From the NCBI GenBank assembly GCA_963665845.2, contig OY762492.1, positions 3,040,001-3,104,000 of the forward strand: a stretch of 64,000 nucleotides of DNA, read 5' to 3'. The notes below the pieces were generated by a model. That model searched no databases. It was not told the origin of the DNA and saw only the letters and a list, made by a program, of their open reading frames with translations. Position numbers and translations under genes: made by a program. The stretch is from Candidatus Poribacteria bacterium. GTDB taxonomy: Bacteria; Poribacteria; WGA-4E; GCA-2687025. Each line of letters begins with the position of its first letter. Position 1 is the stretch's first letter. Positions 29,428 to 37,680 of the stretch are shown here, in pieces.

Positions 29428-30231
29428 TCACTGCGTCTTGACCGCCGCCCATGTGGAGGTCAATTTGCCGGCAGGATCGACCGATGTCGGCACGTCGGTG
29501 ACACTGTCGGCGAGCGTGTGCGCGTCGTCCAGACCGCCGGAGCCGACCGCCAAGTAGAACGCGATCGGGTCGCTTGTCTGCCCTGCGGTCAGGTCTTGGG
29601 ACAGGTTGTCATGGATAAGGTGCATCCGCCCGTCCGCCTGCCATGCGTCATTCACCGCCGCCGTTCCGTTCTCGGTGTACATGGCAAAGTACCCGTCGCT
29701 GTTTGCGAAGGCGACATGGTGGAATGGGTCTTCCCACAGCATATACTGATTTTCAGCGCCTTTTCCGTTGCGCGGTTCGCACATCGGCTCATGCCCGTTG
29801 GTGAGCGATGCCAAGGCGGCGCTCGCTTCAATGGCGAGCTCATGCTTGAAGTAGGGGACGCCGTCCCAGTAGGTGGCGGTGACATGGTACAGCTTGCTGC
29901 CGCCGTCGTTCATGACATATTTCATGACAAGGTAGCCGCCTCCTTCTTCGACGATGTTCACCTCAGCGGCGGCTCCCCAGTCGCGCCATCCGCCGTAGTT
30001 GGAGGAGTGGTAGAAATTGCGCCCCTGGTCGGCTCCGAGAAGGCTGCCCCCGTCCACAATCGCTTGCGAGTAGCCGGCTTGCGCCGCCACTTTGAAGTGA
30101 ACCGTGTACCCGTCCGTTTCAATGATCCAGACGCCGTTGTCTTCCGAAACTGACACCGCCGACGCATGGCTGACTCCGAGCGCCATGACAACGGAAATGA
30201 GAAGGCTCAACAGCGTTTTACGAATGTTCAT
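29428..30231 (-). CDS. Secreted protein, family A paralog 1, C-terminal VDPAGKLTSTWAAVK motif
   Basis: Signal peptide MNIRK...ASA; homologous to three other genes in the window. Confidence 0.85.
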   Translation of the reverse strand: MNIRKTLLSLLISVVMALGVSHASAVSVSEDNGVWIIETDGYTVHFKVAAQAGYSQAIVDGGSLLGADQGRNFYHSSNYGGWRDWGAAAEVNIVEEGGGYLVMKYVMNDGGSKLYHVTATYWDGVPYFKHELAIEASAALASLTNGHEPMCEPRNGKGAENQYMLWEDPFHHVAFANSDGYFAMYTENGTAAVNDAWQADGRMHLIHDNLSQDLTAGQTSDPIAFYLAVGSGGLDDAHTLADSVTDVPTSVDPAGKLTSTWAAVKTQ

Positions 30232-30285
30232 GCGATTCCTTTCAGTAGTTGCGCCGCGCCTCAACTGCGCGGCATTTGAGTGAGA

Positions 30286-31101
30286 TTACCGTTTCAATTG
30301 CGCCCAGCGGGTCGCAAGCTTGTCTTTTGGATCGACCGAGAGCGAGGCGGGTTCTTCGGTGACCTGATCAGCCAGTTCATGCGCATCGTCCAAGTCGCCA
30401 GGTCCGAGCGCAAGGTAGTACACAAGCGGATCGCTTGATTCGTCCTCCTTCAGATTGACGCCCTGTTCATTGTGAAGCAGATGCATGCGTCCGTCTCCCC
30501 CGCCCCCCCAAGCGGCATTGAACGCCGTTGCGCCGACTTCGGTGTACATGGCAAAATAAGAGCCGTCGGTCTCCATCGCCACATGGGGGAACGGGTCGTC
30601 CCACTCCATATATTGGTTGCCTGCGCCTTTGCCGTTGTGCGGCTCCACCATCGGTTCGTGACCGTGGCTGAGCGACAACACCGGATTTTTCGCCGTCACG
30701 ACCAGCTCATGTTTGAAATACGGCGCGCCGTCCCAGTAGGTGGCGGTGACTTCATAAACTTTGCTTTTGTTGTCGTCCACGGTGTATTTCATGATGAGCG
30801 TTTTGTTGGTGTTGGAAATCTCTTTCACATCCACCGCCATTCCCCAGTCTGTCCAGCCGGCGTAGTTGGCGGAATGGTAGAAATTGCGCCCTGCCGCTCC
30901 GAAGAGCGACTCCGCCCCCGCTTCAGTGGAGGGGAACGCTTGCGAGTAGCCCGCCTGCGCCGCTACTTTGAAATGCAGCACATAACTATCGGTTTGGATG
31001 GTCCAGACGCCGCCGTTTTCATCCACTTCCACGGCGCCGAGATCCGATGCGAACGCCACCAAAAAGCAAAGGGCGGCGGCAGCCGTCAACAGCCTTTTCA
31101 T
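30286..31101 (-). CDS. Secreted protein, family A paralog 2, C-terminal VDPKDKLATRWAQLK motif
   Basis: Signal peptide; shared FYH..Y.GW..WG, TYWDG.PY, HEPM, DGRMHL motifs. Confidence 0.85.
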   Translation of the reverse strand: MKRLLTAAAALCFLVAFASDLGAVEVDENGGVWTIQTDSYVLHFKVAAQAGYSQAFPSTEAGAESLFGAAGRNFYHSANYAGWTDWGMAVDVKEISNTNKTLIMKYTVDDNKSKVYEVTATYWDGAPYFKHELVVTAKNPVLSLSHGHEPMVEPHNGKGAGNQYMEWDDPFPHVAMETDGSYFAMYTEVGATAFNAAWGGGGDGRMHLLHNEQGVNLKEDESSDPLVYYLALGPGDLDDAHELADQVTEEPASLSVDPKDKLATRWAQLKR

Positions 31102-31224
31102 TTTTCAGCCTCCTTTCAATCAGCCAGCCGAGCCTCCCGCTGAAAAGGAAACTCGGCGTAAAATAGAATGAACGCCTTTTTTTACCATATCTTATCGGCG
31201 GCGTCAACATACAATGCAAAGCGT

Positions 31225-31380
31225 CGCGCGGCTAAAACCCCCCTAGCCCCCCTTTTCAAGGGGGGAATCGGACGCGGCGCCTTCAAGGGGGAATCGAGCG
31301 CCGCGCTTTCAAGGGGGAATCGAACGCCGCGCGGCTAAAACCCCCCTAACCCCCTTTTCAAGGGGGAATCGGATGCGGCG
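31225..31380. repeat. Cluster of CCCCCCTAGCCCCCCTTTTCAAGGGGGGAATCG repeats
   Basis: Four TTCAAGGGGGAATCG units in ~150 bp. Confidence 0.85.
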
Positions 31381-31386
31381 CCGTAC

Positions 31387-32205
31387 TCAAAACGAGCGTT
31401 TCAAATCCGCCCAGCGCATCGCCAGCTTCTCCGCCGGGTCAACCGACAGCGACGCCGGCTCCTGCGTAACCTGTTCAGCCAGATCATGCGCGTCGTCCAG
31501 ATCGCCCGTTCCCGCCGCCATGTAGTACACCAGCGGATCGCTCGAATCGCCCTCTTTTAGTTGGACGCCAAGATCGTTGTGGCTCAGATGCATGCGCCCG
31601 TCCGGCGCCCATCCGCCGGCAGCGATGGCGGTTCCCATCTCCGTATACAACGCGAAAAAGCCGTTCTCATTCGCAAACGCCGCATGCGCAATCGGAGCGT
31701 CCCAAGCCTGATATTCGTTGTCGGCGCCCATGCCGTTTCGAGGCTCGCTCATCGGCTCATGGTTGTCTGAAAACGAAACGACAGGCTTTTTCGCCTTCAC
31801 AACCACCTCATGTTTCCAGTACGGCGCGCCGTCCCAGTAGGTGGCGGTGACCTCATACACTTTGCTGTCGCCGTCGTCCAAGGTGTAGCGCATGATGAGC
31901 GTGTTGTTGGCGTTGGAAATCTCCTCCACATCCACCGCGGTTCCCCAGTCTATCCAACCGTTGTAATTGGCGGCGTGGTAGAATGTTCGCGGCTGCCCCG
32001 CGCCGAAGAGCGACTCCGCCCCCGCTTCAATGGAGGGGAACGCTTGAGAGTAGCCCGCCCGCGCCTCTACTTTGAAATGCAACGCGTAACGATCGGTTTG
32101 GATGGTCCAGACGCCGCCGTTTTCATCCACTTCCACGGCGCCGAGATCCGATGCGAACGCCGCCAAAAAGCAAAGGGCGGCGGCAATCGTCAACAGCCTT
32201 TTCAT
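31387..32205 (-). CDS. Secreted protein, family A paralog 3 (mosaic), C-terminal VDPAEKLAMRWADLK motif
   Basis: N-terminus near-identical to paralog 2, C-terminal half near-identical to paralog 4. Confidence 0.85.
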   Translation of the reverse strand: MKRLLTIAAALCFLAAFASDLGAVEVDENGGVWTIQTDRYALHFKVEARAGYSQAFPSIEAGAESLFGAGQPRTFYHAANYNGWIDWGTAVDVEEISNANNTLIMRYTLDDGDSKVYEVTATYWDGAPYWKHEVVVKAKKPVVSFSDNHEPMSEPRNGMGADNEYQAWDAPIAHAAFANENGFFALYTEMGTAIAAGGWAPDGRMHLSHNDLGVQLKEGDSSDPLVYYMAAGTGDLDDAHDLAEQVTQEPASLSVDPAEKLAMRWADLKRSF

Positions 32206-32321: not shown

Positions 32322-33346
32322 GGGGACTACTTACTTAACTAACCTCGCGTTTTGCGCTAGTATACATGCTAGTCATGGCACAAGGAGCAATCCGATGCAG
32401 TTTAGCAGCCTTTACGATTTATTCGAGCAGATTCCAAACGAGAAAGCAGCCGCGCGGTTCTTTGAGCAGCATCGCTGGCCAGACGGCAGATGCTGTCCCA
32501 AATGCGGCTCCAAAAACACGATGCGCGTCCAAAATGTGAAACCGATGCCGTTTCGATGCCGAACCTGCCGCAAGCATTTTAGCGTCCGGACCGAAACCTT
32601 GATGGCGAACAGCAGGCTTGCGCTCCGCAAGTGGATCTTAGCGATTTACCTGATGCATACCTCGCGCATGGGCATCTCCAGCGTTGAGATGGCAAAAAAG
32701 ATCGGAACGACGCAGAAGACGGCATGGTCCCTAGGCCACCGCATTCGAGCCGCAATGGTGAGCGACGACGAAATGCTGAGCGGCATCGTGGAGGCGGACG
32801 AGACCTACATCGGCGGCATCGAGACAAAAAAGCATCGCAGGAAAAAGCTGGGCATCGGAAGCGGAACCAGCGGGAAGCAGCCTGTGATGGGCATGCGTCA
32901 AAGAAACGGCGAGATCCGCGCATTTCTGCTGGACAATGAGCTCAAGAAAACGCTGCAGGATGCTGTAAGGGCGAACGTGGCGTCCGGTTCGTCCCTTTAT
33001 ACCGACGCTCTTTCGTCTTACCAGGGCATGCTGGAATACAGGCATGCCTATGTCTCGCATCAGAAAGGCGAGTATGTTCGCGGCGATGTTCACACCAACA
33101 GCATCGAGTCGTTCTGGGCCGTGCTGAAACGCGGGTATCGCGGCGTTTACCATTTCATGTCGTTTAAACATCTGGGTCGCTACGTCAGCGAATTTGTGTA
33201 TCGTTTCAATGTTGGCGTCGACAACAGCTTGGACACGATCGGCAAGCTGATTCCGCGCATGGTTGGCAAATGCCTTACTTACGCGGAGCTGAAAGGAGAA
33301 GGCGGCGTAAAACGACAGCAAAAGGCTATCTAGGGATATAGGCCCC
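32322..33346 (+). mobile_element. IS1595-family insertion sequence
   Basis: Imperfect TIRs GGGGACTACTTACTTAACT / GGGGCCTATATCCCTAGAT; no target-site duplication seen; ends approximate. Confidence 0.7.
32395..33333 (+). CDS. IS1595-family transposase
   Basis: RWPDG..CPKC..CRTC zinc ribbon, HTH, VEADETYIGG, YTD, HTNSIESFW, YVSEFVYRFN. Confidence 0.95.
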   Translation: MQFSSLYDLFEQIPNEKAAARFFEQHRWPDGRCCPKCGSKNTMRVQNVKPMPFRCRTCRKHFSVRTETLMANSRLALRKWILAIYLMHTSRMGISSVEMAKKIGTTQKTAWSLGHRIRAAMVSDDEMLSGIVEADETYIGGIETKKHRRKKLGIGSGTSGKQPVMGMRQRNGEIRAFLLDNELKKTLQDAVRANVASGSSLYTDALSSYQGMLEYRHAYVSHQKGEYVRGDVHTNSIESFWAVLKRGYRGVYHFMSFKHLGRYVSEFVYRFNVGVDNSLDTIGKLIPRMVGKCLTYAELKGEGGVKRQQKAI

Positions 33347-33484
33347 TTTTCAAGGGGGAATCGGACGAGGCGCCTTCAAGGGGGGAATCTGACCTCATGC
33401 TTAAAGTTGGGACATTTGAACCGACAATCGCTCTATTCATGGGAAAAAGGCGCCGCCAACCAGACCGTCATTTGTATGATGACA

Positions 33485-33676
33485 TTGCCCCTCGAGTTAG
33501 CGCATACTTAAGGGGTAGCGCGGTGAGACTCCAGACCGTCTTGGGCGCGTTGCTTCGCAGCGGCGCCGTGCGGGAGTATCGAGAGCCGCGCAAAGAAGAC
33601 AAGAAAGACCGGAGGCTCCGCACAGATACCGTGTTCTTGTTACAGAATACAAGTAAGGAGGCCGGTCCTTCTTGTC
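33485..33676 (+). ncRNA. Predicted IS110 bridge RNA (5' stem-loop, target-binding loop, donor-binding loop)
   Basis: Guides CCAGACCGTC (33531-33540), GCGGGAGTATC (33570-33580), CACAGATAC (33621-33629), ATACAAGTA (33647-33655) match flanks/ends; enclosing stems visible; exact transcript ends unknown. Confidence 0.85.
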
Positions 33677-33701
33677 CTTTTCTCCCGAAAGGAGAACGAA
33701 A

Positions 33702-34891
33702 ATGAACATACCACGCCACGACGAAAACAGCAACAAATCGCCGCCGGAATCGACGTGTCCAAAGACACGCTTGAAATCTCCATCAACGGCGGGGAAACCT
33801 CCACCATTAAAAACGCCGCGAGCCCCATCAAGCGGTTCATCAAACGCCTCCTGACGACCCACTCCAACATCAACATGGTCGTCTTTGAACCGACCGGCGG
33901 ATACGAGCGGAAACTGGCGTCGCTGCTCGCCGAAGCAGAGATCCCTTACCGCCGCTGCCATCCAAACTTTGCCCATAACTTCATCCGCTCCTACAGCGTC
34001 CGCGCCAAGACCGACGCGCTGGACGCCAAGATGCTCGCGCTGTATGGGCTGAGCCGCGATCTGGAACCAACGAAACCGATCGATCCGGTCGTGAAAAAGG
34101 CTCGCCGCTGGATGACGATACGCATGCAGCTGGTGAAAACGATCACTCAGTGGACCAATCGGAAGCATCTGCTGGACGGCGAGGCGACCAAGGATGCGAC
34201 CGAAGAGATCATCCAGTCCCTGAAAGAGAGGCGCGACGCGGCGGAGCGGGAAGCTCTGGCATTGGTCAAGAAAGAGGCAGAGCTTCGCGAGAAGTTCAGC
34301 CTGTTGAAGAGCATTCCGGGCTTCGGGGCTCTCATTTCCGCGTATCTGGTTCTTTATGTGCCGGAGTTGGGCAATCGGAGCGGCCGTCAGATCTGTTCCC
34401 TGCTTGGTTTGGCTCCTTGGGCGCGCGAGAGCGGGAAGTTGACAGGTCGCCGCCGCATTTGGGGCGGTCGGAGCGATGTTCGCGCGCTTCTGTATATGTC
34501 GGCGATGTCGGCGATACAGTATAACCCGGACATGAAGGCGTTTTACGAGCGTCTGACGGATCGCGGCAAGCCTGGGAAGGTCGCGCTTACGGCGGTGATG
34601 CGGAAGTTGGCGGTTCTTGCGAACGCGATTCTGAAGCGTGGAACGCCTTGGGTTCCCTTGGATGAGTTGCATTCTTTGATTTCATCGGAAGAGTCGGCGT
34701 CTTCCGATGAGCAGGATGAAACAGCGGCTGCGGCGCCATCGGAAGAGTCGGGGTCTTCCGATGCGTCGGTCGCGGCGCCGACCGGAACATCTGCGTCTTT
34801 GGATGAAGCTGACGGGGAGGCGCTGCCGGCGCCTGGAGAAGCGCCGGCGGCGTCTTCCGATCCGCAGTCAAGCGACAGGACGCAAGGCTGA
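33702..34891 (+). CDS. IS110-family DEDD recombinase/transposase with an apparent frameshift near the 5' end
   Basis: GIDVSK, FEPTG, KTDALDA, ESGK; RBS+ATG at 33702 is out of frame with the main ORF by one base near 33735. Confidence 0.88.
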
Positions 34892-35217
34892 TGAAAACAT
34901 CTTTCCGAAATTTCGCTGCGGCGGCTCCTTCGGTTCTGCCGAAAAAGATCCGCCGCGGCGACTTTCTGGACTACGGAGAACGAGATATGGTTGACTTTGA
35001 ACACAGATACTCCCGCGCAAGCGGGAATCCAGAGTCCACCTCGAAACCGTCCGCGTTTCCATGCCGACATGTCCCTACTTTAGGCGTGAGGTAAGAGACT
35101 CCCCCTTGAAAAGGCGTTTACGGGCGCGGCGTCCGATTCCCCCTTGAAAAGGGGGCTAGGGGGGTTTTCTGCGCCGCCTTAAGATTCCCGCGCGTTTTAC
35201 CGCAAGGGCGGGGATGT

Positions 35218-36867: not shown

Positions 36868-37680
36868 ATGAAACGGTTGTTATGCGCCGCCGCCGTATTG
36901 ACCGCGGTCGGCGCGGTTGAGGCGTTTGCCGTGAACGTAACCGAAAACAACGGCGTCTGGATCATTGAAACCGATACGTATGTACTGCATTTCAGAGAGG
37001 AGAACCGCGCCGGTTATTCAGAAATCTACCCGTCCAGGCTGTTGGACGCGACATCGCTTGTGGGTCCCGATCAGCCGCGCTCGTTTTACCATTCGGCGCA
37101 GTACGACGGATGGGTTCAGTGGGGCAACGCGGTGAGCGTTGACGAGGTCTTAAACGAAAAGAAAACGCTCATCATGGAGTATCAGGTGGACGACGGGAAC
37201 AGCAAGCGGTATCTCGTCACGGCAACCTACTGGGACGGCGCGCCGTACTGGAAACATGAGGTGGTTGTGAAGGCGAAAAAGCCTGTCGTTTCGTTTTCAG
37301 ACAACCATGAGCCGATGAGCGAGCCGCGCAACGGCATGGGCGCCGACAACGAATACCAGGCTTGGGACGCTCCGATTGCGCATGCGGCGTTTGCGAATGA
37401 GAACGGCTTTTTCGCGTTGTATACGGAGATGGGAACCGCCATCGCTGCCGGCGGATGGGCGCCGGACGGGCGCATGCATCTGAGCCACAACGATCTTGGC
37501 GTCCAACTAAAAGAGGGCGATTCGAGCGATCCGCTGGTGTACTACATGGCGGCGGGAACGGGCGATCTGGACGACGCGCATGATCTGGCTGAACAGGTTA
37601 CGCAGGAGCCGGCGTCGCTGTCGGTCAACCCGGCGGAGAAGCTGGCGGCGCATTGGGCGGAGTTAAAACGCTCGTTTTGA
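36868..37680 (+). CDS. Secreted protein, family A paralog 4, C-terminal VNPAEKLAAHWAELK motif
   Basis: GGAGG RBS, signal peptide, family motifs; TTGACG-N17-TAGCAT at 36806-36834. Confidence 0.85.
   Translation: MKRLLCAAAVLTAVGAVEAFAVNVTENNGVWIIETDTYVLHFREENRAGYSEIYPSRLLDATSLVGPDQPRSFYHSAQYDGWVQWGNAVSVDEVLNEKKTLIMEYQVDDGNSKRYLVTATYWDGAPYWKHEVVVKAKKPVVSFSDNHEPMSEPRNGMGADNEYQAWDAPIAHAAFANENGFFALYTEMGTAIAAGGWAPDGRMHLSHNDLGVQLKEGDSSDPLVYYMAAGTGDLDDAHDLAEQVTQEPASLSVNPAEKLAAHWAELKRSF

Follow-up and report, generated by a model that had tools for sequence, protein, structure and literature searches.

An IS110 element with a predicted bridge RNA and unmatched cores at the NTS/dRS3 hairpin of a Poribacteria genome

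Introduction

IS621 provides the reference for bridge RNAs of IS110 elements. Each loop of its RNA consists of a stem, a short linker, a left guide, an inner stem-loop, a 2-nt linker, a right guide with the core, two handshake bases and a final linker (PMC11208160, PMC11208158). In IS621 recombination, top-strand cleavage falls between positions 9 and 10, and bottom-strand cleavage two bases past the core (PMC11208158). The bottom strand is described as being left unligated and mismatched (PMC13626964), and integration by CazIS110 is reported to proceed mainly via the top strand (bioRxiv 10.1101/2025.10.25.684509). In the experiments of Durrant et al., cores were altered in donor and target together (PMC11208160), and Perry et al. 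required identical cores (bioRxiv 10.1101/2025.05.14.653916). Bridge recombinases are under development as genome editors, and the design published in the latter preprint pairs identical-core sites only. The targeting of REP repeats by IS110 elements is established. The NTS repeat has been described as an extension of the Neisseria dRS3 repeat (Chenal 2025 PMC11893778).

Here we describe an IS110 element in a 64,000-nt stretch of a Candidatus Poribacteria genome (contig OY762492.1, positions 3,040,001 to 3,104,000), which is called the window. Bare coordinates refer to the window, and other positions in the genome carry the prefix C1. The general bridge-recombinase system is already known, and the most informative feature of this element is its unmatched-core mode, in which the target carries the core TT and the donor the core CT.

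The element, its boundaries and its neighborhood

On sequence grounds, the window element is a multi-copy, IS621-type IS110 insertion sequence. It spans 33473..35011 (1,539 bp) on the plus strand, as do the features given below, and its ends are common to nine full-length copies of 1,537-1,552 bp. The left target half (positions 1-7) and the target core TT, both host repeat DNA, precede it at 33464..33472, and the right target half CCCGC follows with the rest of the NTS/dRS3 hairpin at 35012..35033. At the left end, 33473..33480, the right donor arm TGTAT overlaps a -10 box, TATGAT (33475-33480). The right end, 34991..35011, holds a -35 box, TTGACT (34991-34996), the left donor arm ACAGATA (35003-35009) and the donor core CT (35010-35011). 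Joining the ends gives a sigma70-like TTGACT-17-TATGAT with a 17-nt spacer, a predicted promoter. With the element in place and its ends unjoined, only a weak 9/12 promoter-like site is found, at chance level. The target hairpin is carried by a MITE-like unit of about 170 bp, the terminal inverted repeats of which lie at 33389..33415 (left) and 35069..35095 (right).

Several other features surround the element. A long hairpin in its right end (34913-34961; region z = -3.28) is kept among copies. An intact IS1595-family transposase gene lies directly upstream (32395-33333), and a second abundant hairpin family (CCCCTT...AAGGGG, several hundred copies) is present on both sides of the locus (33345-33385 and 35100-35165). 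Four paralogous secreted-looking proteins of about 270 aa with a common C-terminal motif are encoded at 29428-32205 and 36868-37680; the scanned members of this set had no match in Pfam (two scanned) or NCBIfam (three scanned). A run labelled as sponge metagenome contains a 1,398-base relative of the window element.

The recombinase gene (33702..34891) is frameshifted and matches PF01548 (E 6e-18) and PF02371 (E 9e-17). The protein of an intact sister copy matches NCBIfam NF033542 with 186.7 bits (cut-off 140). The DEDD (D, E, D, D) and S catalytic residues and the wedge Y-M-M align with IS621, and ISCro4 also aligns over all catalytic residues; phmmer comparison of the element protein with IS621 and ISCro4 gave E values of 1e-27 to 1e-29. 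The IS621 core-reading residues N84 and A61 align with H and P in the window-type enzyme. An acidic low-complexity tail of about 75 aa (34660-34888) is present in the closest homologues P0006-P0008 and P0012 and missing in distant ones. The closest proteins, P0006-P0014, are 51-66% identical, and scans for related loci in genome and metagenome collections returned distant relatives only (23-37%). The frameshift lies just after the ATG (33702), in a run of three A in the window copy (33735-33737) against four A in the sisters. Contigs in three read runs break off precisely behind this short A run, which hints weakly at a genuine frameshift. Since the window gene is frameshifted, the recombinase would come from intact sister copies.

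The predicted bridge RNA

The long left end of the element is non-coding and keeps the module order of the IS621 RNA, with four guides in order. A predicted 5' stem-loop (33486..33517) is followed by a target-binding loop (33518..33591) and a donor-binding loop (33608..33666). With the layout taken from IS621, the target loop would contain a left guide at 33535-33543, a right guide with the core at 33570-33576 and handshake bases at 33577-33578. The donor loop would contain a left guide at 33622-33629 (8/8 matching), a right guide with the core at 33647-33653 (7/7) and handshake bases at 33654-33655. A preliminary description of the locus had proposed this IS621 layout and placed four guide matches in it; the layout is supported, and each match lies at the position given for it. 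The donor, which the same description likened closely to that of IS621, is identical to it at 11 of 14 positions.

In 20,000 dinucleotide shuffles of this left end (33481-33700), all four core guide motifs never occurred together and three did so once. The fold of the 220-nt left end has a z-score of -4.85, and none of 200 shuffles folded as well. Two-sided change was seen in only 4 of the 58 consensus pairs among seven close copies. Rfam gave nothing meaningful, its four matches lying far below the gathering scores. Contigs from an RNA run cover 33466-33653; they carry no strand or level.

Folding revealed a strong structure and a mostly open donor loop, but when folded freely the target loop comes out closed. 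In the minimum-energy and consensus folds, the right target guide (unpaired probability <=0.07) and a part of the left target guide are base-paired within loop 1, the partners in free folds being the other target guide and the scaffold. The open target loop is therefore drawn from homology with IS621 and not from folding. Opening all guides costs 11.5 kcal/mol (-86.2 to -74.7); shuffles under the same constraint reached -45.3 +/- 4.7, and 0 of 200 were as low.

Two of the matches reported earlier have a composite make-up. The letters of the 10-nt match to the left flank are identical, but by the IS621 layout its first four bases are scaffold and linker, and the guide proper is 33535-33543. The 11-nt match to the right junction is present and is made of five bases of the right target guide, two of the core guide, two of the handshake and two of the linker. 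We also weighed, and set aside, the idea that the guide had been copied from the flank: just two of the four extra matching bases are non-scaffold, which makes the evidence for such copying weak.

In the target loop, the right guide matches at 5/5 positions plus the core AG. The left target guide, ACCGTCTTG, is mismatched with the target, ACCGTCATT, at positions 7 and 9, and the mismatch at position 7 is found in 9 of 10 copies. Two features of position 7 weigh against the bridge-RNA reading. One is the mismatch, as IS621 is described as preferring perfect guide matches. The other is that target and donor have position 7 in common, and a shared position 7 was avoided by Perry et al. as disturbing handshake pairing (bioRxiv 10.1101/2025.05.14.653916).

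It is possible, though unlikely, that the left target guide is not mismatched at position 7 and instead pairs one base out of register (GACCGTC-TT) with target A7 bulged. Such pairing would have nine Watson-Crick pairs and would lengthen the 10-nt identity with the flank. An IS621-style count back from the inner stem (9-nt guide plus one linker base) gives this shifted register, whereas a count from the 5' stem plus a 3-nt linker gives the in-register guide. Two further copies in the genome (c9 and c10, described below) carry A at guide position 7, and most relatives pair only positions 1-8; both observations speak against the shift. Two empty sites, G000:C1:630772 (+) and 2683243 (-), consist of target 1-4 and donor 6-9 and lack one base, which is what a bottom-strand cut in shifted position would produce. 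They lie in similar MITE copies and are possible excision scars, perhaps one event copied. We use in-register pairing with a mismatch at position 7 in what follows.

Copies in the genome and their junctions

A blastn search of the genome found the element at 11 places, namely nine full-length elements, one 5' fragment (c7) and one RNA-only copy (c10). The full-length copies are 63-95% identical to the window copy. Their recombinase reading frame is open in four (397-400 aa) and broken in five, the window copy included; one of the intact copies lies at G000:C1:534426-535969. A covariance model (R1) built from seven copies detected 11 full-length RNAs in the genome, ten in elements and one in c10. 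Across 150 genomes of the class it detected only two end fragments, both in the congener G001; among relatives, L037 scored 45.5 bits and more distant ones scored weakly. A profile search of the genome found no IS110 gene outside the known places.

At all ten end-bearing places, which share one orientation, the left junction reads GTCA-TT followed by TGTAT (or TACAT, in c9) and the right junction CT-CC(C/T)G. Other copies had been expected to share the insertion site of the window copy, and all ten insertions do lie at GTCATT^CC(C/T)G in the genome's top repeat. Insertion is thus specific for site and orientation, at the same base and arm in 10/10 cases, without a long target duplication; a single T is common to both ends. 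The contigs of G001 are broken at the element. In a search of this genome with the core left free in the pattern, 8/8 left junctions read GTCA-TT and 7/7 right junctions read ACAGATA-CT-CCCGC. The end-to-end joint of a circle was not seen among the contig matches listed, which come from assembled contigs only.

It is extremely unlikely that these copies go back to one old insertion spread by duplication of the repeat or the MITE, and so are not independent targeting events. Five copies do share the same MITE flank, and copies are mosaics. Five others lie in other repeat contexts, and the differing flanks largely refute spread from a single insertion. Copies c8 and c9 are only 63-66% identical to the window copy, yet they are inserted at the same base, and the junction is repeated in G001 and in a further genome, G121. 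Repeated targeting of one site by separate elements is the reading that we retain.

The copies also vary in their parts. Copy c8 (L008) is a mosaic whose first ~100 bases are of the main type (96%) and whose body is c9-type (94-96%). Copies c3 and c6 (L003, L006) have a different donor loop in common. Copy c10 (G000:C1:2788109-2788315; L010:710-916) is a stand-alone bridge RNA that scores 85 bits with model R1 and has neither element ends nor a recombinase gene. Its guides still fit the target and donor of the other copies, with A at position 7 of the left guide. This RNA may act in trans.

The target hairpin

The exact empty target site, GTCATTCCCGC, occurs 997 times in the genome. Its family makes up the genome's top 12-, 16- and 20-mers, and the preliminary description was right to call it the most abundant repeat. 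The rejoined site fits the NTS consensus, with the palindrome ATTCCC-N8-GGGAAT, CGTC before it and CYRG after it. NTS that fit exactly number 174 in the genome, and a further 385 fit nearly exactly. The repeat used as target is thus already known, and only its host is new. The "new target specificity" claimed earlier was overstated, as the repeat is the described NTS/dRS3 hairpin and targeting of REP-type repeats is the norm for IS110 elements. It does hold that the exact 11-mer ending in CCCGC is not among the five GTCATTCCCG targets listed by Durrant et al. In the supplement to that study, GTCATTCCCG hairpin arms account for 5 of 5,485 natural targets of IS621 orthologues and are centred one base to the left, and the target loops of these five are mostly gapped (PMC11208160). 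A 102-aa GIY-YIG gene flanked by the hairpins at C1:2298872 is one that we infer to be SsnA. The element would connect RNA-guided insertion with the NTS/Ssn repeats. Having about a thousand landing sites of identical sequence would offer a large intergenic reservoir to the element and many rearrangement points to the host. The L037 element (G121:C86) targets the same hairpin. The G121 assembly (81% complete) is without an exact GTCATTCCCGC; its repeats may be unassembled, or the contig may be misbinned.

The MITE-like unit has 27-bp inverted ends around the NTS hairpin and well over 100 copies. On one C1 strand, its left ends number about 170 and its right ends about 155. No autonomous partner of it was identified. 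Half of the insertions lie in this unit, which holds 17% of the empty sites (P = 0.016). Enrichment of exact guide matches is confounded with a MITE subfamily (5/10 occupied versus 179/1,058 empty sites; within it 4/5, P = 0.065), and given the preference for MITE context, finer claims on target positions 1-3 are confounded as well. All insertions lie in the GTCATT arm, though the opposite arm is as common (769 versus 856; P = 5.6e-4).

In a symmetric hairpin, strict use of a single arm bears on how the site is recognized. It makes it very unlikely that the enzyme finds the hairpin mainly by structure, with the RNA match secondary, and the guides of relatives, which track non-hairpin targets, argue in the same direction. 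A reading of structure would suit the favoured MITE context and the position of c9, which sits where its guide matches only 6/8; ISPpu10 is reported to need a target stem-loop besides pairing (bioRxiv 10.64898/2026.03.19.712850). Guidance by the bridge RNA, the explanation that we favour, leaves room for a contribution of structure in addition to pairing.

Guides track targets across relatives

Changes in guides go together with changes in sites within the genome. The left end of c9 is changed from TGTAT to TACAT, and its right donor guide from ATACA to ATGTA. Guide and site agree at position 2 in 8/9 main-type copies (background 45%; P = 0.009).

We examined 36 relative loci, and 13 distinct elements among them have both junctions readable; the other 23 have a missing or unreadable end or represent the same insertion as L170. 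For 12 elements (the window element and 11 of the 13), the best 8-nt match in the left end averaged 7.2/8 with the element's own target and 5.7 with foreign targets (0/50,000 permutations), the relatives being kin and not independent and the junction patterns having been chosen by the analyst. The junctions of L014 and L037, which stand outside this test, were read by eye. L174 is the one relative that matches its own target at only 5/8. L037 belongs to another family, with an enzyme 39% identical, and has the same target and cores; its guide matches positions 3-9. Comparison of these sequences, to which L032, L013 and L014 also contribute, supports covariation of guides with target and donor across relatives.

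Another relative, L201, is an IS110 element on a Vibrio campbellii plasmid (NZ_CP030790.1). It has TT/CT cores and a left-end RNA, and cassette-like genes lie on either side of the insertion. We take its insertion site to resemble an integron attC-type site. A 14-mer scan of viral contigs for the right junction gave 120 matches, none with an IS110 hit and one with a loose hairpin; in view of the missing IS110 hits these loci were treated as chance.

Unmatched cores and strand exchange

The TT and CT cores had been written out in the preliminary description, which did not draw the consequence of their difference. At 10/10 places of the genome, and at all 8 left and 7 right junctions of G001, TT from the target core is retained on the left and CT from the donor core on the right. 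An identical donor and target core at both ends, which would make the element IS621-like in the narrow sense, was not found. Unmatched cores are also present in 4 of the 13 relatives, as GT/CT in L014 and L169 and as TT/CT in L037 and L201, so that the feature is recurrent and not unique. In these four, position 8 of the left guide follows the target and the right guide core is AG. Relatives with matched and unmatched cores are intermixed. No description of natural unmatched cores was found in the openly readable literature searched, and an earlier mention is possible.

Very probably, the left-end bridge RNA guides the recombinase in joining the element ends to the NTS/dRS3 hairpin, with a likely top-strand exchange just 3' of the core T. 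The element would be copied or cut out as a circle. The circle would join TTGACT and TATGAT at the 17-nt spacing seen in the sequence and may thereby switch on the RNA and the enzyme. Complementarity is observed between the donor loop and ACAGATA-CT-TGTAT and between the target loop and xCCGTCA-TT-CCCGC, and each loop would pair accordingly. By analogy with the work on IS621 and CazIS110, the top strands would be cut between positions 9 and 10 and exchanged, and the bottom strand, unligated or mismatched, would be repaired from the top strand. A product dictated by the top strand should have target positions 1-9 (TT) at the left junction and donor positions 1-9 (CT) at the right one, as is the case in every junction. 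Position 8 of the left target guide is of the target type, and both right guides carry a donor-type G that would wobble on the target T. Exchange would gain one pair in the target loop and lose one in the donor loop, and hence provides no net drive. The window copy is handshake-neutral, as positions 6-8 give four Watson-Crick pairs before and after.

If both strands were cut and overlapped by 1 nt at the shared T, position 8 would never be mismatched, and the constant TT/CT junctions would be explained directly. The H and P at the core-reading positions of IS621 N84/A61 would fit such a different chemistry. We nevertheless consider it quite unlikely. At mismatched positions 6-7, top-strand bases are kept in IS621 as well (PMC11208158, PMC13626964), so new chemistry is unneeded, and the intermixing of matched- and unmatched-core relatives also argues against it. 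Top-strand exchange with repair of the bottom strand is the reading that we prefer.

On balance, this clade probably recombines unequal first core bases as its normal mode, with only the core T shared. The "matching core" rule could then be dropped for it, and the genome studied here would record half-match events, guide-loop swaps and a stand-alone bridge RNA that possibly acts in trans. If this is true, natural joining of a TT or GT target with a CT donor widens the usable site pairs. The unmatched cores also lend genomic support to top-strand-dictated products, a debated point.

Candidate rearrangement scars

Half-junctions are present at two places. The end of an HNH-like host gene at C1:3739043 (+) is ACAGATA-CT, joined to a right hairpin half, with no IS body. 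At C1:523375 (+), the left hairpin half ending in TT is joined to TGTATG in a TolB-like gene, the paralogues of which are intact there. LD-only and RD-only half-match products have been described for IS621 (bioRxiv 10.64898/2026.08.31.748434). The two half-junctions resemble these products and are candidate half-match rearrangement scars, each a single case. An origin of LD-like and RD-like half-junctions from one split gene was ruled out, and so was the candidate left end at C1:523375 as a further IS copy. Two other places have bounds of a similar kind. A 12-base insert at C1:3524959 (+) obeys the TT...CT bounds, and the 5' fragment c7 (C1:469922-470372) has TT on its left and ends at an internal CT, a consistent joint being present also in contigs of run X1.

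Comparison with known systems

The NTS/dRS3/SRM hairpins associated with the SsnA nuclease have the same repeat consensus as the target described here; the repeat in this genome is a landing site and not part of the element (PMC11893778). No description of an IS110 element linked to NTS/Ssn was found in the openly readable literature searched, though one may exist, and the main text of PMC11893778 does not mention IS110. The integrase of the Neisseria Nf1/MDA phage is an IS110-family enzyme that uses the same repeat family, dRS3 (PMC7058167). As described, it uses CT in the loop region of a dRS3 subtype (PMC7058167), whereas the window element cuts three bases into the left arm, which sets the two apart. 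ISPpu9 and ISPpu10 of Pseudomonas putida are repeat-targeting IS110 elements, and the stand-alone Ssr9 RNA copies are a parallel to c10 (PMC12288879; bioRxiv 10.64898/2026.03.19.712850), but their repeats differ from that of the window element.

The likeness to IS621 and ISCro4 (IS622) extends to the domain order, the catalytic residues, the predicted left-end two-loop RNA and junction promoter, and the REP-type target (PMC11208160, PMC11208158, bioRxiv 10.1101/2025.05.14.653916). The window element differs from them in its repeat, in a contiguous 7-nt right donor guide, in a handshake-neutral copy, in the H and P at the N84/A61 positions and in the acidic tail of about 75 aa. IS621 and ISCro4 have the core CT in both donor and target, whereas the window element combines a TT target with a CT donor.
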